NCBI GenBank assembly: GCA_964531275.1 | Contig: CAZHDZ010000006.1 | Coordinates: 14,963-78,962 of the forward strand | Direction: 5' to 3' | DNA from: an uncultured Gammaproteobacteria bacterium | Lineage (GTDB): Bacteria; Patescibacteriota; Microgenomatia; Levybacterales; GWA1-39-11 | DNA: 64,000 nt | Made by a program: the position numbers and the translations under genes | Part shown: piece after piece, positions 2,340 to 37,697 of the stretch | How positions within the stretch are numbered: the first letter of the stretch is position 1 | Layout of the letters: the number at the start of each line of letters is the position of its first letter | The notes under the pieces: generated by a model | What the model was told of the DNA's origin: nothing | The model's database searches: none | Seen by the model: only the letters and a program-made list of their open reading frames with translations

Positions 2340-2876
2340 TTAAAATTTCACTGGAATAGTGAGTTTTTTGTCATTATCCGGTTGACCTGATGGGTTTTCT
2401 TTGTGAATAAATAGTGTCCCATCGCCTTTTTCTGGCTTTGTGAATGTTAATTTTCCTTGAAAGTGCACGAATTCATCAGTCATCCACTCCCCTTCTGCTG
2501 TGAGCTTTACTGAACCAAGCTTTTTATTTTCGCGATCAACTAATTCTCCCGAAAGTTGCCCCTCAAAAAACCATGAGCCGCGGGCACGGCCTTGTACTTC
2601 GAGTGGGCTTGATACCTCCTGATTTGGTCGGGGATTTGTCACCATAATTTCGTCTATCATTTCCAATTCGTTGCCGATGTTCTGTGTAAATGACCTCCCA
2701 TCAGGAGTATTGCATCTGGGAGGGTAACTGTTCAAAGTCTCTGAGAAGGCTGTACACTCTTCAAAAGATTTTACATTACTTATCTTTACGCTCCTCTGAT
2801 ATTGGAGAAAGCCATAGACAGCTCCTGCCCCACAGAGAATGAGAAGAATCACTATTACAATCTTTCTTTTTCTCAT
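2340..2876 (-). CDS. Membrane-anchored protein with Gmad2-type immunoglobulin-like domain (GerMN-associated Ig-like fold)
   Basis: N-terminal TM/signal (IVIVILLILCGAGAV). The motifs VTNPRPNQEVSSPLEVQGRARGSWFFEGQ and GEWMTDEFVHFQGKLTF match the Gmad2 Ig-like domain pattern as I remember it. Confidence 0.6.
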   Translation of the reverse strand: MRKRKIVIVILLILCGAGAVYGFLQYQRSVKISNVKSFEECTAFSETLNSYPPRCNTPDGRSFTQNIGNELEMIDEIMVTNPRPNQEVSSPLEVQGRARGSWFFEGQLSGELVDRENKKLGSVKLTAEGEWMTDEFVHFQGKLTFTKPEKGDGTLFIHKENPSGQPDNDKKLTIPVKF

Positions 2877-2957
2877 ACCATTATTGTATCGCAGATTTAT
2901 ATTGCCATGCTAATAGCTTGCTTGACAACTTTGACTTTTTTTGGCTATCATAGATCT

Positions 2958-3698
2958 ATGCGTAAAAGTTTTCTTATAGCTGCTTCTTTTCTTGTGCTTA
3001 GCGCGACACCTACATTTGCAATCTACCGTACAGATGGTCCTCAAGCAACCCCAGCCGAAGGAGAAGCAATGCTTATGACAACGACAACTGAAGTCGGCAC
3101 TGCACCGAAAGAACCCCGAGCAATTCCTATGGAAAAAACTTCAGCTCTTCCTGGTGAACCAACGTCTAGGATTATGATGGAAAAAGATGACATAAAAGAC
3201 AAAATGATGGAGGCAAGAAATGCTTTTAAGGCAAAGCTGCAAGGAATTAAGGATACAAAAAAGCAAAAAACGGTTGAAAATATTGATTCAAGAATAAATG
3301 AAATCAATAAAAAAAGGACAGAGATGATGGGTGAAAAGCTTACTCGAATGACCTCAATTCTTGAAAAAATCACCTCAAAGGCTGCTGCGTTAAAAGCAGA
3401 AGGTAAAAGCACTGCGTCACTTGAAGCAGACATTGCTACAGCAACTACCATAGTTGAAGCAGCAAAAACAGCAGTTGCTACTCAAGCAGCAAAAGATTAT
3501 GTTGTAGATGTTACAACAGAAACTGCTCTTAAAACTGATGCACAAAAGGCCGTTAAAGCATTTGTAACTGACATAAAAGCAACCATGACGCAAGTGACAG
3601 CAGCACAAAAAGCTGTTGCAAAAGCTGCTCGCGGAGCAGGATTATTGATGGAAAAGCCATCAGTCACTCCAACCATAACATCAGCTGCAACTCAATAG
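2958..3698 (+). CDS. Secreted Ala/Lys/Thr-rich coiled-coil protein (signal peptide MRKSFLIAASFLVLSATPTFA)
   Basis: ORF track 2802..3698. The upstream part overlaps the minus-strand gene, so the start is placed at Met53 (2958), which gives a classic signal peptide. Confidence 0.5.
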   Translation: MRKSFLIAASFLVLSATPTFAIYRTDGPQATPAEGEAMLMTTTTEVGTAPKEPRAIPMEKTSALPGEPTSRIMMEKDDIKDKMMEARNAFKAKLQGIKDTKKQKTVENIDSRINEINKKRTEMMGEKLTRMTSILEKITSKAAALKAEGKSTASLEADIATATTIVEAAKTAVATQAAKDYVVDVTTETALKTDAQKAVKAFVTDIKATMTQVTAAQKAVAKAARGAGLLMEKPSVTPTITSAATQ

Positions 3699-3704
3699 AG
3701 CCCT

Positions 3705-4199
3705 ATGGATAATAAAGACCCACAACCAACACAACCAACTACAGAAGCATCCCCAGCAGCACCTTCTGTTCCAGTTACTCCGGTTACTCCCGAGCCAACT
3801 GCTCCTGTCGAAACACCTCCAGCTCCAGCTGCTCCGGCCATAACAACTACTCCTTCAACAGATCCATCCACAACTCCACCTGCAGGCACTCCTCCGCCAG
3901 TAGTCCCTCCACCTGCTGCAAGCGCACCAGTTGTTGCAAAAGATGGTAAAAAGAAAAATGGCCTTATGATCGTTGCAGCTATCCTTATTGTTCTTATCGT
4001 CATCCTGGGCATCTTGTATTACTTCATAATGCAGCAGTCAGCAACCAAAACACCTACTCCAGTCGTCACACCAACACCTACACCAGTATCCGTTGTTACT
4101 CCAACACCTACTGCAACCGACGAATCAATTCTTGAAGAAGAACTTCCTGATACTACAGATGATGAGGCGACACTAGAAGCCGAAATCAACAACCTCTAG
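3705..4199 (+). CDS. Pro/Thr-rich single-pass membrane protein (PT-rich linkers either side of one TM helix, acidic C-tail)
   Basis: ORF track. Low-complexity PT repeats. TM segment LMIVAAILIVLIVILGILYYFIM. Confidence 0.5.
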   Translation: MDNKDPQPTQPTTEASPAAPSVPVTPVTPEPTAPVETPPAPAAPAITTTPSTDPSTTPPAGTPPPVVPPPAASAPVVAKDGKKKNGLMIVAAILIVLIVILGILYYFIMQQSATKTPTPVVTPTPTPVSVVTPTPTATDESILEEELPDTTDDEATLEAEINNL

Positions 4200-4201
4200 A
4201 C

Positions 4202-4534
4202 TTAGGTCAATTTATTCAGAAGAGAAGATATCAATGAGACAACAATGCTAAAGAGTATTGCTGTAAATAAGGACGCTACATGAAATCCCGGAACAACGGA
4301 GCTTACGAGAAGAACCAACGCCCCATTTAGAATGAGTATAAATATTCCAAGTGTCAAAATGGTGAGTGGCAGAGTAAGGATAACGAGTATTGGCTTTATA
4401 AAAGCATTAACAACCGCAAAAACTACCGATACAATAATAAGAGTCGTAAATGTGTCTACCTCAACTCCCTGGATAATATTTGATGCAATAAAAATTGCGA
4501 GAGCCAGAACGATGAGTCGTAAGAGGATGGCCAT
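4202..4534 (-). CDS. DUF360 / phage-holin-4_2 superfamily 4-TM membrane protein
   Basis: Four hydrophobic helices. The motifs PILVILTLPLTILTLGIF and VPGFHV are typical of the DUF360 family (from memory). Confidence 0.6.
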   Translation of the reverse strand: MAILLRLIVLALAIFIASNIIQGVEVDTFTTLIIVSVVFAVVNAFIKPILVILTLPLTILTLGIFILILNGALVLLVSSVVPGFHVASLFTAILFSIVVSLISSLLNKLT

Positions 4535-4564
4535 ATGCTTATTATAGAACGCTTTTTAATAACT

Positions 4565-5563
4565 TCAAACACTAACTACATTAAGAGGTGCTCCAGAAGT
4601 AAATGCTGATAGATTTTCATGAGTAGTCTCGACGATCTTTTTCAAAGCCTCGCGGCTATTAAATGCGTTATGAGGAGTTATTATAACTTTTGGATGATTA
4701 AGAAGCATGTGATCTTGAAGCACAGTAAGTAATTTTTCTTTATCAAAGTCCTGAGAAAGCAGATCCTTCTCTTCTTCAAGCAACGGCTCTTCTTCCAATA
4801 CATCCAGACCAGCCGCACTAACCTTGCCACTTTCTAATGCTTTAAGAAGTGCTGCAGTATTTATTAAAGCACCTCTTGCAGTATTTAAAAGAACTACCCC
4901 ATCCTTCATTTGAGAAAATGCTTCGTCTGAAAGGTAGTGGTGAGTCTCTTTTGTGTATGGAATATGGAGAGTAACGATATCTGATTGCTGATAGAGAATT
5001 GGCAATTCAACAAATTTACACCCCAACTCTTTCTCGAGAGCATAGTCTGGGGTTCTCTTATACACGATAACATTCATGCCAAAACCTCTCGCAATTTTTA
5101 TAACATTTGTCCCAATACTTCCAACCCCAATAACCCCAATAGTTTTTCCTCTCAATTCAAATCCCGTCAAACCACTAGGCATAAAGCTCCCCTCCTCCAC
5201 TCGATCAATTGACTCTGGAAGTCTACGTGCAATTGCTAAAAGAAGAGCGAATGTATGCTCTGCGACAGTTGTCTCGCCATACGAAGGGACATTGCTAACC
5301 ACAATACCTCTTTTCTTACACTCTTCTATGTCTATGTGGTCAAATCCCGTTGACATAGTAGTTATAAATTTCACATTTGGCATTTTGTCCAAGAGCTCTT
5401 TATTCATTTGCGTATGAATAAAAGTAATGACAACTTCAAAGGTGCTAATATCTGGGGTTTGATCTGAAAGTGGTTGATCGAAGAAAACTAGCTCGTTATC
5501 TGATATTTCCTTTTGGAAATATTCTTTTTCCCAATTTTCCAACTCAAAAAATGCGTATTTCAT
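4565..5563 (-). CDS. D-isomer-specific 2-hydroxyacid dehydrogenase (D-lactate dehydrogenase-like), NAD-binding
   Basis: Rossmann motif GKTIGVIGVGSIGTNVIKIARGFGMNVIVY and the conserved catalytic-region layout of D-2-hydroxyacid dehydrogenases; about 330 aa. Confidence 0.85.
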   Translation of the reverse strand: MKYAFFELENWEKEYFQKEISDNELVFFDQPLSDQTPDISTFEVVITFIHTQMNKELLDKMPNVKFITTMSTGFDHIDIEECKKRGIVVSNVPSYGETTVAEHTFALLLAIARRLPESIDRVEEGSFMPSGLTGFELRGKTIGVIGVGSIGTNVIKIARGFGMNVIVYKRTPDYALEKELGCKFVELPILYQQSDIVTLHIPYTKETHHYLSDEAFSQMKDGVVLLNTARGALINTAALLKALESGKVSAAGLDVLEEEPLLEEEKDLLSQDFDKEKLLTVLQDHMLLNHPKVIITPHNAFNSREALKKIVETTHENLSAFTSGAPLNVVSV

Positions 5564-5622
5564 GGCAGTAATTAAGTATACCCAATTATTTATTAAAAAA
5601 GTAGAGCATAGAATCTTTCAGG

Positions 5623-7995
5623 CTAATTTGCCTGAGGCTTTATTGTTAGATTGTCGTTTTCTATTGTAATATGTCCTTTTTCACCAGAAATTAGATCGTG
5701 CGACAAAATCAATTTTGAGAGCTGATTTTCAACTGACTGTTCTATAAAACGACTTATGTTACGGGCTCCAAATTCTACGCTGTATGCATTTTTTGCAATA
5801 TAATCACACACTGCTGAATCAAAAGTTAGCAGTATTTGTTTTTCCTTCGTTTTTTCTACAATTTCTTCAAGGAATATCTTTGCAACTTGAGAAGCCTCCT
5901 CTTGGGTTAATGGATGAAAGACTATTACATCGTCAAAGCGATTTAAAAGCTCCGGCTTAAAAGTTCCACTTTGTAGAAGTTTTTCTAATAATTTGTCTTT
6001 CATATTTTCGAGTGCACCACTCTTAAACATTTCCCTAATGAATTCGCTTCCAGCATTTGATGTCGCGATAATAATAGTGTTATTGAAAGATACTGTCCTT
6101 CCAAGATTGTCTGTCAAACGCCCTTCATCTAGAATTTGAAGAAATAGATTAAGAATTGATGGATCTGCTTTTTCAAATTCATCGAGAAGTATTTCACTGA
6201 ATGGATTTGCTACTACTTTATCGGCAAGAGTATCCTGATTTCCGGAAGAACCCAAAAATCTTTCAACAGAATTTGAATTCTGGTACTCACTCATGTCTAA
6301 CCTGATCATATTGTTCTCTTCTCCAAAATAGGATGTCGCAAGAGCTTTTGCTGCCTCAGTCTTTCCAACACCTGTTGGTCCCAAGAATAAAAATGAAGCA
6401 ATCGGCTTATTCTCATCTTTAATTCCGGACCTAACTCTTCTCATAGCATCAGCTATCGCCTGTACTGCTTCATTTTGAGCAATAACTCTTTTGTGAATTG
6501 TTTGTTCTAGATTAAGAAGCTCTTTTGCTTCTGCATCAGTAGGCTCTGACAGAACAATTTGAGTTTTTGTCTGAATAAAGTCTCTCACGCTTTGGCTGTC
6601 TATGTGCTTAATGCCATGCGTTAGGCAATATGAAACAGTATCCTCAATAAGTCTTACTGCACGTCCGGGAAGACCAGTGCCATCATTTACATAAGAGTTT
6701 GATAATTTGCGTGCCTCTGAGATAGCAGAGTACATAATAGTAACGTTGTTAACGCTTTCAATTTCTTTGGATTTCTCAAGCAGCATGAAAAGCACTGTCT
6801 CCTCATCTGGCTCATCAATTTCTATCTCATCAAAAAGCTCCTTTATTTCGGTTTTTGGATAAATGAATGTTTTGTATGCCTCCTTGGTAGTACTTCCTAT
6901 AATTTTTATTTTGTTGCTCTTCAGATATTCTACTAACGATCCCGAAAAATCGATATTGAGCCCTCCGCCCCCAAACATATTCTCGATATTTGGAATATAG
7001 ACAATGATATTGCCGGCATGAAAAAGCTCTGAGAAAAGATTCACTATTCTCGCTTCTAAATCTCCTTGATTGTCTATCCCAGCAAGTAGCCTTTCAGGAT
7101 ACAACTTAAAAACCAGCTTATTTGAGACACTTTTTGGCAAGCTACCACTATTAGAATCCACAACCAACTCCTTAACCAAAGCAGTCTTTCCAACACCAGC
7201 ATCCCCAACAAGCATTGCGTTGCTTGATGAACTTTTTGAGAGTGCAGTCACTAGTAGATCGTATTCCCGGGATCTTCCAATTGTTAGAGTTTGGGTTGAG
7301 GACAGAACTTCTCTAGTAAAATCTTGTGCATATTGTGCAAGTTCCGCACTCCAACCATAGACGAAAAAATCAAAGACGCCTGCTCCGGTAAAATGGAGCC
7401 CATGGTGCTTAGGCATGTCGATCGAATATTGTCTCCTAACCCACGATAGGACAATAACGATATCTTTTTCGAATATTTCACTTTGAAATAGCGATTTATC
7501 TATCTCATCTTCCAATAAAAGATATGCAGCATATATATCAATTCCATGTATATTATTTCCTCCAACTGATTTGACGAGTTGGCCTGCCTTAAGAAGGACC
7601 TGCTCTTCATCAATGGTCATTTCGTTTCTTTTGTATGAATGTCCCAAAAGCCTATTAAAATATTTAATCTCGCTCGTATGTAAAAGGTTTCCCATAACAT
7701 CCTCAACTTTTGCAAAACGTTCTAGATGCGCCCTTGTTTTATAGTCAACAGCTTCAATGATATGTTTTACAGCATCATGAATTGTCCTTTGAGGGGGAGA
7801 ATTTTCCAGCTTAAAATGAATAAAAAATTCTTGAAGTATGAGGAAAAAATAGATAGGTAGTAATCGCATTATAAAAGCGACATCTGAAAGGTTGAAATAT
7901 ACAAGAATACCAATCCCGAAGAAAATCAGAACCCTCAACCAACGAATAATTGGGTTGTCAAAAAAATAATACAAATAATAATAGTTATTGTGCAT
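5623..7995 (-). CDS. Hsp100/Clp-family double-AAA+ ATPase with N-terminal transmembrane helices; D1 has Walker A (GDAGVGKTA) but lacks the Walker-B DE; D2 is intact (GPTGVGKTE, ILLDEFEKA, ATSNAG, GARN); no ClpP-binding IGF loop
   Basis: ORF track translation. Two hydrophobic helices in the first 60 aa. A ClpB/ClpC-like D2 with a C-terminal small domain. In D1 the sequence IVYIPNIENMF replaces the expected hhhhDE box. Confidence 0.75.
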   Translation of the reverse strand: MHNNYYYLYYFFDNPIIRWLRVLIFFGIGILVYFNLSDVAFIMRLLPIYFFLILQEFFIHFKLENSPPQRTIHDAVKHIIEAVDYKTRAHLERFAKVEDVMGNLLHTSEIKYFNRLLGHSYKRNEMTIDEEQVLLKAGQLVKSVGGNNIHGIDIYAAYLLLEDEIDKSLFQSEIFEKDIVIVLSWVRRQYSIDMPKHHGLHFTGAGVFDFFVYGWSAELAQYAQDFTREVLSSTQTLTIGRSREYDLLVTALSKSSSSNAMLVGDAGVGKTALVKELVVDSNSGSLPKSVSNKLVFKLYPERLLAGIDNQGDLEARIVNLFSELFHAGNIIVYIPNIENMFGGGGLNIDFSGSLVEYLKSNKIKIIGSTTKEAYKTFIYPKTEIKELFDEIEIDEPDEETVLFMLLEKSKEIESVNNVTIMYSAISEARKLSNSYVNDGTGLPGRAVRLIEDTVSYCLTHGIKHIDSQSVRDFIQTKTQIVLSEPTDAEAKELLNLEQTIHKRVIAQNEAVQAIADAMRRVRSGIKDENKPIASFLFLGPTGVGKTEAAKALATSYFGEENNMIRLDMSEYQNSNSVERFLGSSGNQDTLADKVVANPFSEILLDEFEKADPSILNLFLQILDEGRLTDNLGRTVSFNNTIIIATSNAGSEFIREMFKSGALENMKDKLLEKLLQSGTFKPELLNRFDDVIVFHPLTQEEASQVAKIFLEEIVEKTKEKQILLTFDSAVCDYIAKNAYSVEFGARNISRFIEQSVENQLSKLILSHDLISGEKGHITIENDNLTIKPQAN

Positions 7996-8341
7996 ACCAT
8001 TGGGGAGATGCTGCTCCCAAAAGAATGAAAATTAAAGCAATTGGTATTGATGCAATAAGAAATCCTATGAGACATTCTGCGCAAAGGATAATAAGAACAA
8101 TGCATGATGTAACAGCAATCAAAATAGATTTTATTACCATTCCAAATAGTATTGAGAAAAGGACAAGCCCATCCCTATACTCATTCTTCATAGGTTTGAA
8201 AAAAGTTCTTATCAGTAAGGGGAGAGAGAGAAGGGATACTACATACCTGTTAAATAGCACGAAGAAATTTATCAACCCACCAAGAACGTCTTTGTACCAG
8301 AAGATAATGAGATACAGTGGGTAGTATAAAAATGCAACCAT
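7985..8341 (-). CDS. Small 4-TM membrane protein, overlapping (11 nt) and co-directional with the Clp-like ATPase
   Basis: ORF track. Four hydrophobic segments. Stop overlaps the start of the downstream Clp-like gene. Confidence 0.45.
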   Translation of the reverse strand: MVAFLYYPLYLIIFWYKDVLGGLINFFVLFNRYVVSLLSLPLLIRTFFKPMKNEYRDGLVLFSILFGMVIKSILIAVTSCIVLIILCAECLIGFLIASIPIALIFILLGAASPQWYAQ

Positions 8342-8414
8342 AGCAAGACTAAGAAGCTCAACGCTCCCTATTCCTAGTTTAGGTTAACCGTGCTTGTGGG
8401 GCAATAAGTAAATA

Positions 8415-8741
8415 TTGTATGATAACCTCATGACGGATACTGATCTTTTGTCTTATCGTGATCTTTTTATTGAGTCTGCAGAGGAGCATGTACAAAAAAT
8501 TAATTCTGAGCTTACGAACAGCTCTGCACGCAAAGAAGTTATTGATGAAATATATAGGAGGATTCATTCATTGAAAGGCTCCTCAAGCATAATGGGCTTT
8601 TCCGAAATCTCCCAACTATGCACTAAAGCAGGAGACCTACTACAAGATCGCGAGAAAGAAAGTACTAGAGATGATAACCTTAAAATAGTTCAAGAAATTG
8701 TTAATAACATCCAACAAAAAATAGAAGAAATTAAAAAATAA
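8415..8741 (+). CDS. Standalone histidine phosphotransfer (HPt) domain protein
   Basis: The sequence RIHSLKGSSSIMGF fits the HPt signature HxxKGxxxxxG, in a ~100-aa all-helical context. Confidence 0.65.
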   Translation: MYDNLMTDTDLLSYRDLFIESAEEHVQKINSELTNSSARKEVIDEIYRRIHSLKGSSSIMGFSEISQLCTKAGDLLQDREKESTRDDNLKIVQEIVNNIQQKIEEIKK

Positions 8742-8746
8742 GAACT

Positions 8747-9112
8747 ATGAAAATACTGCTCGCGGAGGATGATCCATTCTTTCAAAATTTTTATTCCCGA
8801 AAATTATTAGAACATGGCTTTGAGGTAGATGTGGCGCATGATGGAAATGAAGCAATTGACAAGATATTCAAGCATACACCTGATGTTGTTCTACTTGACC
8901 TTATTATGCCGGGAAGAAATGGCTTTGAAGTACTCTCTGAAGTTTCAAAAAATAACACAATAAAAAAGCCTCCAATAATAGTATTTTCCACTCTAGGCCA
9001 AACTTCAGATATTGAAAAGGCAAAGCAATTAGGTGCAGTTACCTATATTAATAAAACCTTTTTCGATTTTGACAATTTATTATCTAAAGTAACAGCTGTT
9101 ATGAAAAACTAA
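8747..9112 (+). CDS. Single-domain CheY-like response regulator receiver
   Basis: MKILLAEDD...DVVLLDLIMPGRNGFEVL...TYINKTF: conserved Asp pocket, phospho-acceptor Asp, and Thr/Lys positions. Confidence 0.85.
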   Translation: MKILLAEDDPFFQNFYSRKLLEHGFEVDVAHDGNEAIDKIFKHTPDVVLLDLIMPGRNGFEVLSEVSKNNTIKKPPIIVFSTLGQTSDIEKAKQLGAVTYINKTFFDFDNLLSKVTAVMKN

Positions 9113-9119
9113 ATAGAAT

Positions 9120-10808
9120 ATGATCCTGTCCGACGATCAAATCAAAGCATTAGTTCTAAAAACTGGTCTTGCTAATGACCAGACTCTTCAGGAGCTCGTT
9201 GAATTCGCGAAAAATTCAAATGTTACACTTGCCGATGCCTTAATAGAAAAAGATGTAATCTCTGATGAAAATCTTGGAATACTCATCGCTGACTTCCTCC
9301 ATATCCCATTTATAGTTCTTTCAAAACTCTCGATACCAGAAGATGTATTTAGAATTGTTCCTGAAAAAATTGCAAGAAAACATAAAGTTATTCCATTTGA
9401 AAAAACACAAGAAGGGTTAAAAGTAGCAATAGTTGACCCTAAAAAAGTTGAGGTTCTTCAGGCGATCAGCAAAAAAGCTGGAGTCAAAGTCATACCTTAT
9501 CTCACAACGGAGCGTGATGTTGAAAATATTCTCCGCATATACAAAAGAGATCTTCAAAAATCATTCGAGCAACTCCTACAAAAGGAGCTTGGTATAACTG
9601 ATATTTCAAAAGTTACTGATGCTGCTCCAATTGAAAAAATTGTTAACCTACTTGTTGAATTCGGATATCAAGATAAAGTATCCGATATTCATATAGAACC
9701 TGAAGAAAAGGATTCACTTGTACGTTTTAGAATCGATGGAATACTCCATGACGTACTTTACTTCCCTAAGAACTTTCATGAAAGAATTATCTCAAGAATA
9801 AAAATCTTGTCGAAATTAAGAACCGACGAGCATTTAAGTCCTCAGGATGGAAAAATGAGAATAAAACTTGATGAAGAAAATCTCGACATCAGAGTCTCAA
9901 TACTACCAATTGCAGACGGCGAAAAAGCAGTGCTTCGTTTGCTTGCTTCACATTTCAGACAGTTTTCCCTCATTGACCTTGGAATGAGTGAATCCGATCT
10001 GAAAAAAGTAACAGCAGCGTACAGCAAGTCGTATGGAATGGTCCTCTCAACTGGTCCGACAGGAAGCGGAAAGACAACCTCTATATACGCGATTCTAAAA
10101 ATTCTTAACACAAGAGAAAAAAATATTACAACGATTGAAGACCCTGTTGAATACAGAATAAAAGGAGTTAATCAAATCAATGTTAATGTCAAAACCGATC
10201 TTACCTTTGCAAATGGTCTTCGCTCTATTCTGCGTCAGGATCCAAATGTTGTTTTTGTTGGAGAAATCAGAGATGGTGAAACGGCTGGTATTGCTGTAAA
10301 TGCTGCTTTGACCGGACATTTAGTTCTGTCTACCCTCCACACGAATGATGCCGCAACCGCTCTTCCTCGTCTCATTGATATGAAAGTTGAGCCTTTTCTT
10401 GTTGCTTCCACAGTCAATGTCATTATCGCTCAAAGACTTATTAGAAAAATCTGCGATATGTGCAAAATGTCCTATACTATATTAAGAACGGACCTTGCTA
10501 AGAATCTCCCACCAAGCGTAATATCAAAGCATTTTGGTGAAAAAGAGAACATAAGCCTTTATCGTGGAAAGGGCTGCAAGATCTGTCATGCAACGGGATA
10601 TTCAGGAAGACTAGGACTTTTTGAAGTACTCGTGGTATCGAAAGAAGTTAAAGCTCTTATTACGGCAAAGTCGGACTCTGACGTAATTGCAAAAAAAGCT
10701 ATCGAAGAAGGAATGACTACTATGTTAAATGACGGAATAAATAAAGTTGCAAAAGGAACAACAACATTGGAAGAAGTGTTGAGAGTTACAAGGGTCGAAT
10801 CCGATTAA
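9120..10808 (+). CDS. pilB: Type IV pilus assembly ATPase PilB (GspE family) with N-terminal T2SSE_N domain
   Basis: Walker A GPTGSGKTTS, Asp box, His box, and tetracysteine-like motif CDMC...CKIC. N-terminal domain LADALIEKDVISDENL. Confidence 0.92.
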   Translation: MILSDDQIKALVLKTGLANDQTLQELVEFAKNSNVTLADALIEKDVISDENLGILIADFLHIPFIVLSKLSIPEDVFRIVPEKIARKHKVIPFEKTQEGLKVAIVDPKKVEVLQAISKKAGVKVIPYLTTERDVENILRIYKRDLQKSFEQLLQKELGITDISKVTDAAPIEKIVNLLVEFGYQDKVSDIHIEPEEKDSLVRFRIDGILHDVLYFPKNFHERIISRIKILSKLRTDEHLSPQDGKMRIKLDEENLDIRVSILPIADGEKAVLRLLASHFRQFSLIDLGMSESDLKKVTAAYSKSYGMVLSTGPTGSGKTTSIYAILKILNTREKNITTIEDPVEYRIKGVNQINVNVKTDLTFANGLRSILRQDPNVVFVGEIRDGETAGIAVNAALTGHLVLSTLHTNDAATALPRLIDMKVEPFLVASTVNVIIAQRLIRKICDMCKMSYTILRTDLAKNLPPSVISKHFGEKENISLYRGKGCKICHATGYSGRLGLFEVLVVSKEVKALITAKSDSDVIAKKAIEEGMTTMLNDGINKVAKGTTTLEEVLRVTRVESD

Positions 10809-10809
10809 T

Positions 10810-11880
10810 ATGCAATTATTTAATAACTCCAACCCTAAATCGTTACGTATTAGCAGTACTGAAAAATTAGCATTGATCAGCAATCTTGCAACAATGCTAA
10901 CTGCAGGAATTCCTATTCTTGAAGTTGTGGATTCTCTTTTAGAGGATGCGAAAGGCAATCAAAGAAAACTTCTTGAATCACTGAAATTAGATCTTACCCA
11001 AGGAAATCATGTAGCAGATGCATTCGCAAAATTTCCTCGGGTTTTTGACAAGATTACCGTAAATCTCCTTAAGGCATCTGAAGAAGCAGGAACCCTAGAC
11101 GTAACGCTTATCGACTTGAAAGCTTCAATAAGAAAAGATTCTGAATTTTCAGACAAAATCAAAGGAGCACTTACGTATCCCGTACTTATTATGTTTGTTT
11201 TTATTGGAGTGCTACTTATGATCCTGGTTGTTGTTGTTCCAAAAATCTCAACGGTGTTTATGAGACTTAATGTAGAGCTACCACTACCTACCCAGATTCT
11301 TATCGCAATGTCTCAAGCGCTTACTCAATATACAATATTTGTAATTTTAGGAGCTGTAATATTTGTTGCTGGAATTTTTCTTCTATACAGAGAAAAGAAA
11401 AGAGAATTTCTTCACATACTCTTTATGCTACCCATCATATCCACCCTCGCAAAACAAATTGATCTGACTCGCTTTTCAAGAAGTCTTTACTTATTACTTA
11501 ATGCGGGTATTCCAATTGCAGCCGCATTAGAATTAACACAAGACGTTGTACTAAAACGTGAAGTTGCAGAATCAATTACGCATTGTAAAGAGGTTGTTCT
11601 TGCTGGTAGCCAGCTTTCGGAGGGACTTAAAAAAGCAAAGGGGATATTTCCAAGCATTATGATAAGAATTACTGAAGCAGGAGAGAAAAGCGGATCCCTA
11701 GATAAATCGATGCAAGATGTCTCTGAATATTTGGACTACCAAGTAGAAAAAACTCTCAAAACTCTTACAACTGTTCTAGAACCTATTATGCTTATTTTTG
11801 TTGGAATTGCGGTCGGAGGAATGATGCTTGCTATTATTGCTCCTATATATGGGCTTATTGGGCAAGTCACTACACGGTAA
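10810..11880 (+). CDS. pilC: Type IV pilus platform protein PilC (GspF family, two T2SSF repeats)
   Basis: Three TM segments with duplicated cytoplasmic domains. Position directly after pilB. Confidence 0.85.
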   Translation: MQLFNNSNPKSLRISSTEKLALISNLATMLTAGIPILEVVDSLLEDAKGNQRKLLESLKLDLTQGNHVADAFAKFPRVFDKITVNLLKASEEAGTLDVTLIDLKASIRKDSEFSDKIKGALTYPVLIMFVFIGVLLMILVVVVPKISTVFMRLNVELPLPTQILIAMSQALTQYTIFVILGAVIFVAGIFLLYREKKREFLHILFMLPIISTLAKQIDLTRFSRSLYLLLNAGIPIAAALELTQDVVLKREVAESITHCKEVVLAGSQLSEGLKKAKGIFPSIMIRITEAGEKSGSLDKSMQDVSEYLDYQVEKTLKTLTTVLEPIMLIFVGIAVGGMMLAIIAPIYGLIGQVTTR

Positions 11881-12365
11881 TGAAACTACAACGACAAGCT
11901 GGATTCACCTTAATTGAAATTTTATTAGTAGTTGGGATTCTGGGACTACTTTTCGGAATCGGGCTTTTAAGCATTGGCAACATCCAAGTAATCACTCAAA
12001 ATAATGCCTCTTCAACCCTGATAGTCTCAGATCTTAAGACACAGCAGATAAAGGCGATGGTTGGTGACACAGAGGGAAGAGGAATTCCGGATAACTATGG
12101 CATTAAAATTTTGACAGACAGATATATTTTATTCCACGGCATAAATTACAACGCAGCTGATACTGCTAACTTTTCAATTCCACTCGCATCCGGATATACA
12201 CTGAGCTCTACATTTCCCAATACAACAATTCTCTTTGCATCAAATAGTGGAGAGCTAGTAAACTTTGCTCAGGGCAGTGACACAATTACGGTAACCCATA
12301 CGTCATCAAGCAAGCAACAGGTTATTAGACTTAATAAATATGGAACTATTACAAATCTTCAATAA
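11880..12365 (+). CDS. Prepilin-type (pseudopilin/minor pilin) protein with class III signal peptide
   Basis: N-terminus MKLQRQAGFTLIEILLVVGILG: G-F-T-L-I-E with Glu at position +5 after the Gly cleavage site. Confidence 0.8.
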   Translation: MKLQRQAGFTLIEILLVVGILGLLFGIGLLSIGNIQVITQNNASSTLIVSDLKTQQIKAMVGDTEGRGIPDNYGIKILTDRYILFHGINYNAADTANFSIPLASGYTLSSTFPNTTILFASNSGELVNFAQGSDTITVTHTSSSKQQVIRLNKYGTITNLQ

Positions 12366-15276
12366 AAACCAAAAAGGCCAGATGCTCATAGAAATTCTTA
12401 TTGTCATTGCAATAAGTGCGATTATGCTCCCAGCACTACTCACTGGCCTTTTCTCATCAACTCAAGGAAAAGCACAACAGGGACAACGAGTACAAGCAAT
12501 CGCTCTTATGAAAGAGGCTGAAGAAGTAGTCAGAAACGTTAGAAACCAGAGCTGGCAAGCCTTTGCCACCAATGGCATTTATCATCCATTGATATCGGGC
12601 ACTACGTGGAATTTTGCATCAGGGAGTGAGACGGTAAATGGCTTGACTAGAACAATTACTGTTAGTGACGTTAGGAGAGATGCGAATGGAGCAGTTGTTA
12701 CTTCAGGCGGCAGCCTTGATCCTTCTACTAAGCGTGTCTATATTCAAGTGACCTGGGGTGAACCCTACGCTTCTTCTGTAGATTCTACTATTTACGTTAC
12801 AAGATTCCTACAAAATGCAGCCTCAACCCAAACAAGCATTAGTGACTTTAGCACCGGCACTTTTGCAACAACCGAATCATCGAATGTGTTGGGTGGAGAA
12901 ATTACGCTTTCAACCAATACGAAGGGTAAATGGTGCTCTCCCGCTTTTGCTGCAGCTACCATTACGCTCCCTGATGGTCCACCAGTTGCCGTTGCCGCGA
13001 CCTCAAGCGCAACCAGCATAACAATACCAAATCAAGCATTTGTAGCAACAGCCCCAACCCTTGCAACTTCAATTAAATTGGCGCATGTTACGGTGTCTGC
13101 TGATACCGATACTCAGACGACTTCTCTTCGAGGGAAATTCACTCTTGACCCAACCAAATACAGCAATGCCGGACTGGTGCCCTCAGGCATTGGACTAGAC
13201 AATAGTTTTAAAACAAATGCCATAAAATATTACAAATCGTCTTCGGGAAAAATGTATGCCCTTATAGCAACTACAAAACCTGACAGGGAGGTTATAGCAA
13301 TTTTAGTTGATGACAACAATAGCTCGAATGATAATACAAATACCGGCGAGTACCAAGATTATGTAAATGGAATTTATAAATATTGGACGTACTTTAATAC
13401 CAATACATACAACACTGCAGGAAATTTTGATACAGGATTTCAAAGTCCATCAGCAAATTCCGCAGACAGTGGAGGGGATGGGGATGGATTTACCAATGGT
13501 AGCAGGGCTTACTCAAATAATACCCAACAAGCAACAGATAGTAATAGCGGATCGGGGACAGGAACAAGCTGCACTGGGAGCGACAAGGACAAGCATCGAT
13601 TCTACAACTATGATTTTACTCTCCCAACAGGTGCTGCTATTTCCGGGATCGAAGTAAGACTTGATGCATGGGTTGAAAGCACATCCAATTCACCCACTAT
13701 GTGTGTTCAACTTTCCTGGGATGGGGGTACAACATGGACAACAGCAAAATCAACAACAACATTAACAACATCTCAATCAACATATCTGCTTGGAGGCTCG
13801 TCCGACACTTGGGGTCGGTCATGGGGAAGCACTGAGTTGAGCAATTCAAATTTTAGAGTTAGAGTGATTAATGTATCAAGCAGCACCTCAAGGGATTTTT
13901 CCCTTGATTGGGTGGCTGTAAAAGTTAATTATTCAGGTGGAACCCTAAATGACCAAGCCCCATTCGATTATGGAGCTACCTCTATTGCAGTTCTTGGAAA
14001 TCAAGGCTATGCAAGCTCTGGTGGATACCTTTACACCTTTGATTTATCAAACATCGACTCAAAATCCACCTCAGATGGTCTAGATATGGTAGGCTGCAGA
14101 ATACAGCTTGATGGGTACGACTGTAATCCCGGCTCCGGCACAGATAGAAAGTACGACCCTGGTGAATATGGGGCAAGCTGGTCTGATACAACTTCACCTG
14201 CCCACAATGACTGCTCTGATGGAGGAAATATAGAGCTGTATGGAACAAATGATATTTACCCAGTCCAGGTAGGCAGCAATACATATATTTATGCAGCGGT
14301 TGGTGCTGGTACAAATCCTGAGCTTAATATTGTAAATGCTACAAGCATACCAACCACAAGCACTACTCCCACAATTTCAGATAGTACGTGTGGGAGAGCC
14401 TCCGGAGGCAATACCGGATGGAAATTGGTCGGAAGCTATGACTTTAATACAGCCAATGGCACAGAAGAAGCTGCAAATTCTGTATATGCCAGCGCTGATG
14501 GAACGAGGGCTTATATATCATCCAATGGTGGCTCGGCCAGCAAGCAGCTTTATGTAATAAATACCTCCAGCAAAACCGCTCCCGCCTTCCTTTCAGGCAG
14601 TCCTTCAACTGGACCTCTAAGCGGATTCTACAGTGGAACTGGAGCAGATGCCGAACTGTATCCAAGACGTTCACTAACTGTTTTTAACGGTCAGAGAGCT
14701 GTGTTGGTTGGAAAAGATGGAACGGTAAATGGAAATAATGGGAAAGAATACCAAGTACTTAACATGAGCAATGAAGCCAACCCTACATACTGTGGGGGTT
14801 TGCAGTTCGATTCAGGATTTAATGACCTTACTGCTGTTTCGGAGTTAGACGGAGACAACTTTGTATACATGGTCGGAAATACAGTAGGAAATGAGTTGAA
14901 AATAATTCAAGGAGGTCCTGATGGCACCTACCTAAGCTCCGGAACGTATGAATCCTCTCCAAAGGATCTAGGTGCAAATGTAGCACTTAATAGATTTTCT
15001 GTAACTGCTACTGTCTCTGCTTCAACCATTCTTCAATTTCAAGTTGCTGCCACTCAACAAGTAAGTGGTTCTTGTGTTGGCGCAACATATACGTACGTTG
15101 GGCCAGATGGCACTTCAAGCACCTACTTCCCTTCAAGCGGAGGACCAATACCTTTGAGTGGAGTTGTTGGATTTGAAAATCCTGCACAATGCGTAAAGTA
15201 TAAAGCTTTTCTTTCAACAACAGACAACAATGTAACCCCTTCAATTCTTGACGCATCTTTTAATTTCTCACCGTAA
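12340..15276 (+). CDS. Giant prepilin-type protein (978 aa): class III signal peptide (KGQMLIEILIVIAISA) fused to a large Ser/Thr/Gly/Asn-rich extracellular region; candidate pilus tip adhesin
   Basis: ORF track. N-terminal prepilin motif with E at +5. Remainder is beta-rich with low-complexity ST-rich stretches and no further TM segment. Confidence 0.7.
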   Translation: MELLQIFNKNQKGQMLIEILIVIAISAIMLPALLTGLFSSTQGKAQQGQRVQAIALMKEAEEVVRNVRNQSWQAFATNGIYHPLISGTTWNFASGSETVNGLTRTITVSDVRRDANGAVVTSGGSLDPSTKRVYIQVTWGEPYASSVDSTIYVTRFLQNAASTQTSISDFSTGTFATTESSNVLGGEITLSTNTKGKWCSPAFAAATITLPDGPPVAVAATSSATSITIPNQAFVATAPTLATSIKLAHVTVSADTDTQTTSLRGKFTLDPTKYSNAGLVPSGIGLDNSFKTNAIKYYKSSSGKMYALIATTKPDREVIAILVDDNNSSNDNTNTGEYQDYVNGIYKYWTYFNTNTYNTAGNFDTGFQSPSANSADSGGDGDGFTNGSRAYSNNTQQATDSNSGSGTGTSCTGSDKDKHRFYNYDFTLPTGAAISGIEVRLDAWVESTSNSPTMCVQLSWDGGTTWTTAKSTTTLTTSQSTYLLGGSSDTWGRSWGSTELSNSNFRVRVINVSSSTSRDFSLDWVAVKVNYSGGTLNDQAPFDYGATSIAVLGNQGYASSGGYLYTFDLSNIDSKSTSDGLDMVGCRIQLDGYDCNPGSGTDRKYDPGEYGASWSDTTSPAHNDCSDGGNIELYGTNDIYPVQVGSNTYIYAAVGAGTNPELNIVNATSIPTTSTTPTISDSTCGRASGGNTGWKLVGSYDFNTANGTEEAANSVYASADGTRAYISSNGGSASKQLYVINTSSKTAPAFLSGSPSTGPLSGFYSGTGADAELYPRRSLTVFNGQRAVLVGKDGTVNGNNGKEYQVLNMSNEANPTYCGGLQFDSGFNDLTAVSELDGDNFVYMVGNTVGNELKIIQGGPDGTYLSSGTYESSPKDLGANVALNRFSVTATVSASTILQFQVAATQQVSGSCVGATYTYVGPDGTSSTYFPSSGGPIPLSGVVGFENPAQCVKYKAFLSTTDNNVTPSILDASFNFSP

Positions 15277-24433: not shown

Positions 24434-25297
24434 TTAAAACCAACGTTTCTTTTTTGATTCTTCTGCAAATTCCTCAAGAAGCTCTTTTTGTCTTGAGGAT
24501 AATTTGCCAGGCACTTCAACTTGAACTCTTACATAGTGATCTCCATGAGTAGAAACATTAACATGCTTTACACCCTTCCCCTTAATCCTTATAAGAGTCC
24601 CTGGTTGAGTTCCTTGTGGTATTTTAAGCTTTACTTTTCCAGCAACTGTCTCGATTTCCTCAATGCCACCGAGGGCCGCCTCGTGCATTGCCACTTTAAG
24701 ATCTGAGATGATATCATACCCTTCTCTTCTGAATTTAGAGCTTGAAGCAACAGAAATTAAAATATCAAAATCATTAAATTGAATTCTTGATCCTTCATTT
24801 ACTCCTGCCGGTACTTTAATGTCTTTCTTAGTTCCATCCAAAGATACCGTTTTTGTAGTTCCTTTTACTGCTTCCATAAAATCAATTGTTAAAGAATATG
24901 CAGGCTTTCGTCTTCCAAAAGGGGAAGCACCGCCAAAAAATTGCTCAAAAATATCAAATGGATCTGTCCCACCAAAATCAAAACCCTGGCCACCGTTACT
25001 TGTATATGAATAACTAAAAGGTCCCTGCTGGCCACCAAATCCTCCAAAGGGCCCACCCGCTCCCCCACGTCCTCCATTCTCAAATGAAGCGGACCCGAAT
25101 TGATCATATTGTTGTCTTTTCTGAGGATTTCCAAGAATTTCGTATGCTTGATTTATTTCTTTAAATTTTTCCTCTGCTTCTTTGGATTTATTTTTATCAG
25201 GATGATACTCAACAGCAAGCTTTCTGTATGCCTTTTTAAGCTCTTCCGCAGTCGCGGACTTAGTAACTCCTAACACTTTGTATAGGTCTGAATTCAT
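24434..25297 (-). CDS. DnaJ-family co-chaperone lacking the zinc-finger CxxCxGxG repeats (class B, CbpA/DnaJ-like): J-domain, G/F-rich region, C-terminal substrate-binding domains
   Basis: YKVLGV...HPDKN J-domain with the HPD motif. A GGFGG-rich linker. No CxxC repeats. Confidence 0.85.
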
Positions 25298-25329
25298 ATA
25301 GCTATTGTAACTTTTTGCTCATCAGTATT

Positions 25330-25356
25330 TTAGCAATTTCAAGATTCAATTGCTAG
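25330..25356 (-). promoter_or_regulatory. CIRCE-like inverted repeat TTAGCAATT-N9-AATTGCTAG upstream of the dnaJ-like gene
   Basis: An 8-bp perfect inverted repeat with a 9-nt spacer, the same geometry as the HrcA operator CIRCE (TTAGCACTC-N9-GAGTGCTAA). Intergenic position between the subtilase stop and the dnaJ-like start. Confidence 0.45.
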
Positions 25357-25358
25357 AT

Positions 25359-27056
25359 TCATCTTGGGGAACAGATGAGAGGGCAAATCTGAATACTTTT
25401 TCCGTTTTTTGTACATTTTGGATCAGGAACGCAACTAAAATACTGGTCGGGAGTTGGAGTTGGTGTTCCGACTTGCTTAAATGCACCCAAGGTTGGAGTT
25501 GGTGTGGGAAATAACACGGTTGGCAATGGAGCAAACGTTGCTGTAGGGCTTATTGTAAGACTAGGAACAATTGTCGTTGAGACCGATGGCGTGAGGGTTG
25601 ATGCCACTGTTGGTAATGCTGTTAAAGAACCGCAGGCTTGCATTGCCTTATACACATTAAGTCGCGGACCAATTGGCCTATCAGTAGATATTGGTTCTGC
25701 ACCTTGAATGAGACAGTCTTTTACTTGAGATGCGGAAAGAGACGGTTTTGCTGCCAAAAGAAGCGCAGCTGCTCCTGCAACATGAGGACTTGCCATACTT
25801 GTTCCTTGACTGGATTTATATCCTCCACCTGGCCATGTCGATATAATTCCTGTCCCCGGTGCTGAAATTCCAACAAATGACCCAAAATTAGAAAAGGATG
25901 CCCTTGAGTCAGTGGGTGTAGTTGCGCCAACAGCTAGAGCCCCACTGCATGATGCCGGACTATAGAGACCAGCATCCTCAGCAACGTGCGTGGTTGGGTG
26001 GCCATTTCCAGCAGCAACAACAACCAAAACACCCTTTGAAACAGCGTATGTTATTGCCGTATCATACTGGCTACCCTGTCTACATGGAGTCCTGCCACCC
26101 AGACTCATATTAATAACTTTTGCTCCATTATCTGCTGCGTAACTGATAGCCTGTGTCGTTGCAGTTGTGTCGCAGCTTGCAGAAGAACCGTATGGGACAC
26201 ATACCTTTAATGGCATTATCTTAACCGTCCAATTAACACCCGTCACCCCAACAGAATTATTACCAACTGCACCTACTGTTCCTGCAACATGCGTCCCATG
26301 TCCCACATCATCAGCTGGGTTTGAGTCTCCATTGGCAAAGTCGTACCCAGCTACCGCATTTGCAGATAAATCGGCATGGGAAGCTTCAATTCCCGAATCA
26401 ATTACAGCAACAACAACACTTCCAGAACCTTTTGTCATATCCCATGCAAGCGGCGCTTGAATTTTTTCCATTCCCCAAAGCTGACTATAATTAGGATCGT
26501 TTGGAACTGCAAAAAGCTCAAACTGGTTATTGGGCTCTGATGAGTAAAAGAAAGGGACGCTTGCAAGTTCTTGCTGCACATTAATAGCATCTACTCCTTG
26601 ACGTAATTTTAATGTATAAAATCCACGAAGCATTATGTCATCGGTACTATAAACTTTGACGAATGATACTACCCCAATCTTTTTAAAGACATCATTAATT
26701 TCGGAAAGCTTTTCTTGGGGCTTCTTTTCTTTAAGAATACTGTCTTGTGCCGAATTCCATGTATTCACAGTCTTGCCTAAAATATTTCTATCATTCTTAT
26801 TAAATTCTTCTTCCTTTTTCATTAAATCTGAAGGAATATAGTCATCTCTAAATCGAACCACTATTTCATTGGGGACATATCTTTCCGTTGCAGGAAATGC
26901 CTCATATTTTTTTGAATAGACTTCATTTTTTTTTGCGGATTTCTGAAAAACGGTTGCAAAAAAATATAGAGTAATCAGAACAAATACAAAAAGAGTGATT
27001 ACTATAAAAAGTACTCTTGGAGATTTTAAGTTATTGATTGAGAATTGCTTTAACAT
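25359..27056 (-). CDS. Subtilisin-like serine protease (peptidase S8) with N-terminal TM anchor, prodomain-like region and C-terminal Pro/Thr-rich, Cys-containing tail
   Basis: Catalytic triad motifs VAVIDSGI (Asp), HGTHVAGT (His), GTSMASPHVAG (Ser). Confidence 0.9.
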   Translation of the reverse strand: MLKQFSINNLKSPRVLFIVITLFVFVLITLYFFATVFQKSAKKNEVYSKKYEAFPATERYVPNEIVVRFRDDYIPSDLMKKEEEFNKNDRNILGKTVNTWNSAQDSILKEKKPQEKLSEINDVFKKIGVVSFVKVYSTDDIMLRGFYTLKLRQGVDAINVQQELASVPFFYSSEPNNQFELFAVPNDPNYSQLWGMEKIQAPLAWDMTKGSGSVVVAVIDSGIEASHADLSANAVAGYDFANGDSNPADDVGHGTHVAGTVGAVGNNSVGVTGVNWTVKIMPLKVCVPYGSSASCDTTATTQAISYAADNGAKVINMSLGGRTPCRQGSQYDTAITYAVSKGVLVVVAAGNGHPTTHVAEDAGLYSPASCSGALAVGATTPTDSRASFSNFGSFVGISAPGTGIISTWPGGGYKSSQGTSMASPHVAGAAALLLAAKPSLSASQVKDCLIQGAEPISTDRPIGPRLNVYKAMQACGSLTALPTVASTLTPSVSTTIVPSLTISPTATFAPLPTVLFPTPTPTLGAFKQVGTPTPTPDQYFSCVPDPKCTKNGKSIQICPLICSPR

Positions 27057-30436: not shown

Positions 30437-30455
30437 TATTCATTATATGCAGATA

Positions 30456-32756: not shown

Positions 32757-32759
32757 AGG

Positions 32760-33074: not shown

Positions 33075-33142
33075 ACAACATTAATAGTAGCATCAATCGG
33101 ACAGATAAAACAACACGTTTTGCAAAATTTACTCTGTAGAAT

Positions 33143-35242: not shown

Positions 35243-35246
35243 AGCA

Positions 35247-35729: not shown

Positions 35730-35765
35730 CTATTTAGGATAGCATTTGCGGAGGAAAATAAAAGA

Positions 35766-37685: not shown

Positions 37686-37697
37686 AATTTATTTAGT

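Follow-up and report, generated by a model that had tools for sequence, protein, structure and literature searches.

We examined a 64,000-nucleotide stretch of DNA (the window; contig CAZHDZ010000006.1 of assembly GCA_964531275.1, forward-strand positions 14,963 to 78,962) that carries on its minus strand a pair of genes whose products we have named p118 and MCLP (membrane Clp-like protein). The upstream gene (7985..8341, minus strand) encodes a hydrophobic partner protein of 118 aa with three to four membrane helices, as judged from the open reading frame (ORF) and its hydropathy. The downstream gene (5623..7995, minus strand) encodes a membrane-anchored two-ring ATPase of the Clp/Hsp100 type, 790 aa in length. 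A preliminary description of this DNA, made from the letters alone, had placed both ORFs at these coordinates and had reported that the start of the second overlaps the stop of the first by 11 nt; both points were confirmed from the sequence. The overlap itself (7985..7995, minus strand) is ATGCACAATAA and the junction reads ...CAATGGT ATGCACAATAA, with the ATG of MCLP at 7995-7993 and the TAA of p118 at 7987-7985, an arrangement that is consistent with translational coupling. Promoter and terminator scans across 4100-8800 gave counts that were not above those of shuffled sequence and were uninformative.

The gene pair is conserved in relatives, as the preliminary description had proposed to check. 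A family-profile scan of one genome per species (GTDB) recovered 548 relatives, and the best 80 loci were analysed. All 80 derive from metagenome-assembled genomes (MAGs) of the Candidate Phyla Radiation (CPR)/Patescibacteria and include Levyibacteriota, Saccharibacteria, Paceibacterota, Davies-, Colwell-, Wolfe-, Portnoy-, Lipton- and Moranii-bacteria, and CPR3. Among the 80 are several binchicken MAGs that bear the title 'uncultured Gammaproteobacteria' but share their gene order with loci titled Levyibacteriota. An iterated hidden Markov model (HMM) search of six-frame translations, with p118 as the query, showed that in 77 of these loci a homologue directly precedes MCLP in the same orientation; two of the other three are cut by a contig end, and the third (L075) encodes a canonical Clp. 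The junction between the two genes takes several forms, namely an overlap in 45 loci (by 4 nt in 36 of these, mostly as ATGA), a gap of at most 30 nt in 18, a gap of 79-130 nt in three, and an in-frame fusion in 11. When one natural fusion, P0083 (816 aa), was used as the query, a fused subfamily of more than 100 clusters at 90% identity was found. For several of these clusters the source names are Moraniibacteriota or Amesbacteria, and fusions of the Moraniibacteriota type are about 816 aa long. The N-terminal region of P0083 aligns to p118 and then to the N-region of MCLP, and its predicted structure has a predicted local distance difference test score (pLDDT) of 85. Because of these fusions and the near-universal adjacency, it appears that p118 and MCLP act as one unit, and we are highly confident that they form an obligate two-subunit membrane complex. 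The earlier suggestion that the upstream miniprotein and MCLP make up a membrane complex is thus strongly supported.

The p118 protein has no match in Pfam, NCBIfam or PADLOC, and every one of its 51 homologues is unnamed or annotated as 'hypothetical'. Their alignment contains an invariant loop, TFFKP(L/M)KNEYRxGLVxFS, between hydrophobic helices, as well as conserved K71, E89 and P100. The four transmembrane helices originally assigned to p118 are an approximation, since hydropathy indicates three to four. A p118 profile built from Levyibacteriota only and run against 1.84 billion representatives retrieved 55 proteins, including one 832-aa fusion; this search under-reports the family, because a context-guided jackhmmer search found p118 homologues across the CPR loci.

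MCLP begins with a membrane hairpin (residues 15-63; 7807..7953, minus strand) that was identified by hydropathy, predicted helices and conservation. One strongly hydrophobic segment spans about residues 15-35 and a second about 39-61; over a 19-residue window their Kyte-Doolittle means are 1.9-2.0. An AlphaFold model of MCLP, built on 30 homologues with a mean pLDDT of 84, places helices at residues 15-34 and 39-63 with the four-residue loop NLSD between them. Residue E56, in the second of these helices, is invariant. Hydropathy and the model thus both describe a membrane part that is purely intramembrane, with almost no extracytoplasmic loops. The hairpin would be oriented N-in/C-in, since the ATPase must be cytoplasmic. 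At least one hydrophobic stretch within the first 200 residues (19-residue Kyte-Doolittle mean of at least 1.6) is present in 75 of 77 family members, compared to 0 of 33 canonical ClpB proteins. The N-termini of the two exceptions may be incomplete: the ORF of L077 reaches the contig start, and in L078 the first ATG lies after the beginning of the tblastn match. The two N-terminal membrane helices of the preliminary description are therefore borne out by hydropathy, by the model and by the family at large. The same description had considered that this hydrophobic region might be an annotation artefact, with the true start further downstream. However, 30 homologues of full length (780-795 aa, 34-85% identity) share a conserved N-terminus that begins at Met1 and includes both helices, and the stop/start overlap is conserved family-wide. 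The start is therefore real, and the possibility of an artefactual anchor is effectively refuted.

The hairpin is followed by a helical domain (residues ~79-189; 7429..7761, minus strand) in which the AlphaFold model has eight predicted helices. That this region resembles Clp_N was part of the preliminary description, and the resemblance can be shown only in part. A comparison by hhalign of the MCLP N region with repeat 2 of the ClpB N-domain gave a probability of 78% (E = 1.9e-5), and family member L064 exceeds the Pfam Clp_N gathering score at the equivalent place; however, MCLP itself has no Pfam Clp_N match. The ClpA HMM TIGR02639 aligns from MCLP residue 121, and ClpA in the PDB aligns from residue 125. 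Between the N domain and the first AAA+ module (D1) lies an aromatic loop, FTGAGVFDFFVYGWS (residues 202-216; 7348..7392, minus strand), which serves as a family signature. Within FTGAGVFDFFVYGWS, G204, G206, G214 and W215 are invariant in the window's clade. Equivalents elsewhere in the family read GxGIGExWVxGWT or MNRAWTARPTP, whereas canonical Clp proteins lack the loop in the alignment. The model has low pLDDT at residues 200-207. In four members (L053, L064, L071 and L073), two CxxCxGxG motifs of the DnaJ-type zinc ribbon precede the membrane helices at the N-terminus; the Pfam model DnaJ_CXXCXGXG matches these N-termini with E = 1e-4, which is below its gathering score.

By its fold and the sequence of its second AAA+ module (D2), MCLP unquestionably belongs to the Clp/Hsp100 superfamily. 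It has the two tandem AAA+ modules, with AAA_2 in D2 and a ClpB_D2-small lid, by which class I two-ring Clp/Hsp100 proteins are recognized. The PDB match to ClpC has an E value of 4e-105 (100 bits for D1 and 259 bits for D2). A Foldseek search of the PDB returned ClpC and ClpB chains with E values down to 5e-52 for the top match, and TM-scores normalised to the target reached 0.84 for ClpC chains without the N domain.

D1 (residues ~237-465; 6601..7287, minus strand) is degenerate and is seen by Pfam through generic P-loop models only. The preliminary description had claimed that its P-loop is kept but that the acidic pair of Walker B is missing, and we found both to be the case. The Walker A motif GDAGVGKTA (residues 264-272; 7180..7206, minus strand) is intact. 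At the Walker B site, IVYIPNIEN (residues 331-339; 6979..7005, minus strand), a HMMER alignment to Staphylococcus aureus ClpC sets FIDELH against YIPNIEN, so that the D-E pair becomes P335-N336, and the strand at residues 330-334 of the AlphaFold model ends at this same P335-N336. The Gly-rich stretch NMFGGGG, to which attention had also been drawn, is not special, as it aligns to the ordinary TLVGAGG of Clp proteins (the GAGG motif). Both Arg fingers of D1 are gone, with the RR of 'ERRFQ' replaced by E386-L387 in alignments to ClpC, three ClpB proteins and the window's canonical Clp. The pore-1 loop has changed from KYRGEFE to DNQGDLE, with loss of the Tyr.

These losses extend across the family. 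The RR fingers of D1 are found in none of the 77 members, and the Walker B DE pair in only 10, the other states including PD (20 members), PN (13), PE (10) and DD (8). Walker A has K-T/S in only 30/77 and K-E in 25/77. An aromatic residue occurs in the D1 pore loop of two members, in neither case at the Tyr position, and the KYR loop has been lost in every member. D1 is thus predicted to be without the capacity for canonical ATP hydrolysis, and it appears to be under relaxed or altered constraint, as expected of a structural tier. We also observed that the Walker B region of L001-L032 and L069 (query residues 335-339) tends to have one acidic residue, which occupies the position of the catalytic Glu (IPEFQN, IPDFQN) or else lies two positions further on (IPNIEN, IPNFEN). 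This apparent either-or pattern holds in 29 of the 32 Levyibacteriota loci, and D1 may accordingly have kept some role in binding Mg2+ or nucleotide.

The catalytic apparatus of D2 is, in contrast to that of D1, strictly conserved. D2 (residues 530-689; 5929..6408, minus strand) matches Pfam AAA_2 with 151.7 bits, and the small or lid domain (residues 696-773; 5677..5910, minus strand), which contains the sensor-2 motif GAR (R745), matches ClpB_D2-small with 70.1 bits. D2 has all of its catalytic residues, namely Walker A GPTGVGKT, Walker B LLDEFEKA, sensor-1 N647, Arg finger R686 and sensor-2 R745, and each of these five features, which are the ones checked, is intact in 77/77 members. D2 is therefore predicted to be able to hydrolyse ATP and to be a strictly conserved motor, and it is likely that D1 is non-hydrolytic and that D2 is the sole motor of the protein. 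Ring assembly is implied by conservation of the trans-acting Arg finger of D2.

The preliminary description had called D2 fully canonical, ClpB-like and without a ClpP loop. This was correct for the catalytic residues and for the ClpP loop, but not for the pore loop or for the likeness to ClpB. The docking motif (I/L/V)G(F/L) is absent from MCLP residues 648-680, where the FAGFGG region of ClpC is replaced by FKSGALEN. There is no M domain in MCLP, and its alignment with three ClpB proteins has a gap of about 120 residues at the M-domain place; the ClpB HMM matches MCLP as two stretches and the ClpA HMM as one. Since it lacks the M domain, MCLP is ClpA/ClpC-like in length rather than ClpB-like. 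It is thus predicted to be unable to dock ClpP via the usual loop and to be without the M domain by which DnaK would dock. As for the pore-1 loop of D2, a remnant, LGSSGNQDTL (residues 581-590; 6226..6255, minus strand), is found where GAPPGYVGYEEGG is expected: GAPPGYVG has become GSS-GNQD, which is about six residues shorter and has no aromatic residue. About 73 of the 77 members have a GYVG loop that is deleted or varies, and no other part of D2 is so poorly conserved. An aromatic residue at the canonical place is found in four members, L037, L048, L077 and, weakly, L053. Two of these, L037 and L048, are fused proteins of the CPR3 type that keep both the DE pair of D1 and a GY/QVGY loop, and they look like intermediates.

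Hsp100/Clp ATPases are soluble threading motors, and ClpB/Hsp104 cannot translocate without the D2 tyrosine. One possibility is that MCLP is a classical unfoldase or extractase that pulls membrane proteins or aggregates from the membrane through its central pore in the manner of FtsH, Msp1 or ClpB, with p118 as an adaptor or anchor. Such a machine would agree with the full two-ring Hsp100 fold, the intact D2 motor, the membrane anchor and the proteostasis gene context described below. A dead D1 is no obstacle to it, as that of Pex1/Pex6 is compatible with threading, and the four members named above keep the D2 pore aromatic, two of them together with the D1 Walker B. However, neither pore loop of MCLP is aromatic, the D2 loop is deleted or variable in nearly all members, and the D1 loop is lost in all. 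With both pore tyrosines gone, the usual mechanical basis is missing for the unfoldase, extraction and disaggregation roles put forward in the preliminary description, at least as they were stated there. Threading would not be the simplest prediction from the sequence, even though four members keep an aromatic at the canonical place. Classical extraction is a serious rival all the same, albeit one that we consider unlikely, and the chance that the mechanism is a non-threading one seems to us about even.

Profile-HMM classification of the AAA modules, one of the checks proposed at the outset, identified D2 as AAA_2 but left MCLP far below the cutoff of every Hsp100 equivalog. The scores were 427.7 bits against a cutoff of 1232.1 (TIGR03346) and 366.5 against 1417 (NF008118) for ClpB, 389.8 against 993 for ClpA (TIGR02639), 343.7 against 885 for ClpV/TssH, and about 350 against 1900 for the ClpK and ClpG models. 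Neither the window nor the related loci contain genes of a type VI secretion system. MCLP also lacks a competent D1, as defined by Walker B hhhhDE and RR fingers, and the aromatic pore-1 loops (KYR in D1, GYVG in D2). The features shared by the family allow it to be delimited in its own right. We propose that p118-MCLP systems be recognized by p118 upstream or fused, N-terminal hydrophobic helices, the linker G-h-G-x-x-W-x-x-G-[WFY]-T, a degenerate D1 and an intact D2, all of which are found in the window pair.

Among known systems, MCLP resembles the class I ATPases ClpC and ClpA, which have no M-domain coiled coil of the length seen in ClpB, in its two AAA+ modules with D2-small, its length, its putative Clp_N-like N domain and its canonical D2 catalytic residues, and these proteins provide its best sequence and fold matches. 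However, it differs from them in having a membrane hairpin and an obligate membrane partner, in lacking the D1 DE pair, Arg fingers and pore Tyr, in the deletion of the D2 GYVG loop, in the absence of a ClpP-docking loop and in scores far below the equivalog cutoffs. With ClpB/Hsp104 it shares a D2 that is nearest ClpB by HMM (TIGR03346, 428 bits), the absence of a ClpP loop and, in Levyibacteriota, proximity to DnaK/DnaJ. In contrast to these disaggregases it has no M domain (the DnaK-docking coiled coil) and no pore-loop tyrosines, its D1 is dead, it is membrane-anchored, and its score is about one third of the cutoff. FtsH is likewise a hexameric AAA+ protein with two N-terminal membrane helices in an N-in/C-in arrangement, a role in membrane protein quality control and small membrane partners. 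However, the only AAA module of FtsH is of another clade, its two helices are separated by a periplasmic domain, its pore loop is aromatic, and it is fused to an M41 peptidase. None of these features is found in MCLP; despite the hairpin, MCLP has no Peptidase_M41 or FtsH_ext match, and it has two AAA modules.

Functional parallels can also be drawn with eukaryotic proteins of other clades. Pex1/Pex6 (with Pex15/Pex26) and NSF have two rings, of which one is degenerate or structural (D1 in Pex1/Pex6, D2 in NSF) and the other is the motor. Pex1/Pex6 is tethered to the membrane by a separate membrane protein. The resemblance is functional only. Both Pex1/Pex6 and NSF belong to another AAA+ clade, and the D2 of Pex1/Pex6 still has aromatic pore loops and works by threading. 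The tether of Pex1/Pex6 is tail-anchored and, unlike p118, is neither co-translated nor fused. Bcs1, Torsin-LAP1 and Msp1/ATAD1 are membrane-anchored rings, of which Bcs1 and Torsin are without classical threading loops and work in other ways, and Torsin needs a membrane partner. However, they are eukaryotic, single-ring proteins of unrelated clades and serve as analogies only. The combination of a membrane anchor, an obligate or fusable partner, a dead D1, the loss of both pore Tyr residues and restriction to the CPR is not known to have been described, and we found no description of a membrane-anchored Hsp100 in the CPR in the searchable full-text literature.

Similarity to defence proteins was also considered. 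Residues 353-764 of MCLP match the PADLOC models DolB (139 bits) and PDC-M37B (121 bits), which might point to an anti-phage or mobile-element ATPase. However, these matches cover only the region of generic Clp D2 similarity, p118 has no PADLOC match, and the pair stands in housekeeping contexts in every lineage. We rejected this candidate, and a role in defence can be regarded as effectively refuted.

The gene neighbourhood offers some indication of function. Only the p118-MCLP pair itself is universal in its context. In Levyibacteriota outside the window's clade, the genes run co-directionally and with short gaps in the order hrcA-grpE-dnaK-dnaJ-p118-MCLP-nusA-infB, and CIRCE-like palindromes (controlling inverted repeat of chaperone expression) precede hrcA in L016 and L027. 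With identities assigned by NCBIfam and Pfam, DnaJ lies upstream of the pair in 12 loci and DnaK in eight. In L004, L010, L013 and L069 the pair follows a canonical two-ring clp gene and an S8 subtilase gene, with dnaJ in between in L004.

The window has a complete heat-shock/proteostasis array of this kind (24434-38986, minus strand), but the pair has shifted to a place 16 kb distant. All of its members are on the minus strand, beginning with a CIRCE-like palindrome (38960-38986) and continuing with hrcA (38188-38910), grpE (37698-38201), dnaK (35766-37685), three ORFs without Pfam match (35247-35729, 33143-35242 and 30456-32756), a canonical two-ring Clp of 961 aa (27551-30436), a split S8 subtilase (prodomain ORF 27031-27576 and catalytic ORF 25359-27056) and dnaJ (24434-25297). 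This canonical Clp has intact DE, RR and GYVGY motifs, with SHR in its D1 pore loop where KYR is usual. It lacks an M domain, carries a low-complexity insert (some 60 residues) in D2 at the ClpP-loop place and ends in a P/Q-rich tail of some 100 residues; its CPR homologues P0082, P0086 and P0087 are alike. MCLP is thus encoded beside a separate, canonical Hsp100 of the same genome and does not replace it. The third of the unmatched ORFs (30456-32756, minus strand), upstream of the canonical clp, encodes a protein of 766 aa that has internal repeats and an N-terminus of signal or membrane type. Homologues occupy the same position in further loci of Levyibacteriota, namely L075 (1644-3797; 40% identity over 753 aa), L030 (165-2555) and L017 (63-1886). 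We rejected it as a Clp relative; single-linkage chaining had brought in what is an unrelated repeat protein.

On the other side of the pair, and divergent from p118, the plus strand encodes an Hpt protein (8415-8741), a stand-alone response regulator (8747-9112), a PilB-like ATPase (9120-10808), a PilC-like protein (10810-11880), a pilin-like protein (11880-12365) and a 978-aa ORF without Pfam match (12340-15276). The region 8415-15276 looks like a phosphorelay in front of a type IV pilus operon. The pair might accordingly belong to a secretion, uptake or pilus device, either as an energiser of export or import, similar to Plasmodium HSP101-PTEX or to Bcs1, or as a type IV pilus accessory. 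The PilB, PilC and pilin genes are also found beside the pair in L002, L003, L006 and L029, a hexamer would gather up to ~36 membrane helices, and Bcs1 is an AAA ring without threading loops that moves folded cargo. However, this neighbourhood is common to the closest loci only and is on the opposite strand, and no secretion-system components recur beside the pair elsewhere. We therefore rejected a pilus link as clade-specific. The export device suggested in the preliminary description has no contextual support beyond this divergent operon, and we regard a function of this kind as highly improbable.

Several other genes lie on the 3' side of MCLP. A D-2-hydroxyacid dehydrogenase is encoded at 4565-5563 (minus strand) and recurs in the same place in L001-L006 and L029, and 4202-4534 (minus strand) encodes a 110-aa four-helix membrane protein of the Phage_holin_4_2/DUF360 type. 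On the plus strand, 2802-4199 contains two ORFs, neither with a Pfam match. One, of 298 aa, has an Ala/Lys/Thr-rich tail of coiled-coil-like appearance, and the other, of 164 aa, is Pro/Thr-rich with a single membrane helix.

Published transposon sequencing (Tn-seq) data are available for a probable orthologous pair in the saccharibacterium Southlakia epibionticum ML1, listed in tables but not discussed in the text (PMC10633639). SEML1_0701 is a hypothetical protein of 127 aa (Tables S1 and S2), and SEML1_0700 is an 860-aa 'AAA family ATPase' whose gene overlaps that of SEML1_0701 by 22 nt (PMC10633639). SEML1_0700 has Pfam AAA_2 at 544-706 and D2-small at 713-792, a weak PF00004 match at D1 and no Clp_N (PMC10633639). 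Both genes were called NE, NE and GD over passages P0-P2, so that a growth defect is called late and alike for the two, and the normalised reads of SEML1_0700 fell from 4124 to 1638 and those of SEML1_0701 from 258 to 51; canonical ClpC (SEML1_0512) and ClpP (SEML1_0493) were NE throughout (PMC10633639).

Taken together, our best explanation is that p118 and MCLP form a CPR-wide, D2-driven membrane AAA+ complex that works in membrane proteostasis and is probably not a classical threading unfoldase, a reading to which we would give slightly less than an even chance as a whole. In such a complex, MCLP would form a hexameric ring under the membrane, with up to ~36 membrane helices (6 x [2 + 3-4]). 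D1 would be a nucleotide-stabilised or purely structural tier, as is D2 in NSF or D1 in Pex1/Pex6, and D2 alone would burn ATP. As neither ring has the aromatic paddles for hand-over-hand threading, the motion of D2 probably passes via a rigid tier of D1 and N domain and the aromatic loop 202-216 to the membrane helices and p118, or would act on clients bound by the N domain and this loop. Membrane-embedded or membrane-proximal clients would then be gripped, loosened or handed over rather than processively unfolded, and the function would be quality control of membrane or envelope proteins beside DnaK/DnaJ, the canonical Clp and the S8 protease. Proteostasis is the best-supported guess because of the operon context in Levyibacteriota, the sub-threshold DnaJ-type zinc ribbon and the matched mild fitness defect, but its probability is at best even and perhaps somewhat lower.

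Several observations weigh against this explanation. The chaperone-operon context is limited to Levyibacteriota, and the neighbours in other phyla are unrelated housekeeping genes (UDG, PolX, NUDIX, L20/IF3, PBP2, TopA, CTP synthase, HIT and BacA). Even in the window, the pair is 16-30 kb from the heat-shock array, albeit on the same strand. No CIRCE element was found upstream of p118 in the window, the only candidates being 38960-38986, which belongs to hrcA, and a weaker site at 41917; control of the window pair by CIRCE/HrcA was rejected for this reason. The Saccharibacteria pair was matched by its layout and by domain coordinates in annotation tables, not by sequence. Stoichiometry, ring formation and membrane topology are inferred. 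Loss of the pore Tyr residues argues against threading but leaves the mechanism that replaces it unspecified, and the ancestral machine may have threaded, given that L037 and L048 keep a GYxG-like loop together with the D1 DE pair. The functional assignment is the least certain part.

The loss of pore loops combined with conservation of the D2 catalytic residues would also fit a nucleotide switch. MCLP could be a scaffold or regulator at the membrane that tethers or times factors such as DnaK, the canonical Clp or the S8 protease, or the gate of a channel-like p118 bundle, and not a machine acting on clients. The very strong conservation of the p118 loop and the purely intramembrane nature of the membrane part, with essentially no extracytoplasmic loops, are in keeping with this. 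However, we identified no motif for binding a partner, polypeptide clients are suggested both by the Clp_N-like domain and by the DnaJ-type zinc ribbon of some members, and a two-ring motor of 790 aa is costly for a small genome. We therefore consider a switch very unlikely. A bolder version of the membrane AAA+ complex can also be envisaged, in which a D2-only motor, lying beneath a ring of up to ~36 membrane helices and without threading, opens, closes or deforms the p118 bundle and so moves or dislocates cargo across or out of the CPR membrane. This would be a new kind of AAA+ membrane machine, and we think it quite unlikely. If true, its cargo might include proteins that are folded or embedded in lipid, or lipids from the host that CPR bacteria cannot make. 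A Bcs1-like principle would then have arisen within the Hsp100 family, in a housekeeping system that defines the Patescibacteria as a lineage.

The p118-MCLP pair may thus represent a branch of the Hsp100 family that is built into the membrane with a small partner, in which one ring has become structural and the threading tyrosines have been discarded while the D2 ATPase remains under strict selection. The module is conserved across the CPR/Patescibacteria, a large and poorly understood group with tiny genomes and few dispensable genes. As the probable orthologous pair has a matched mild fitness defect in a genetically tractable Saccharibacterium, the hypothesis is directly testable. Its outcome would bear on how AAA+ proteins work without pore-loop aromatics, and on how ultrasmall epibionts maintain their membranes.

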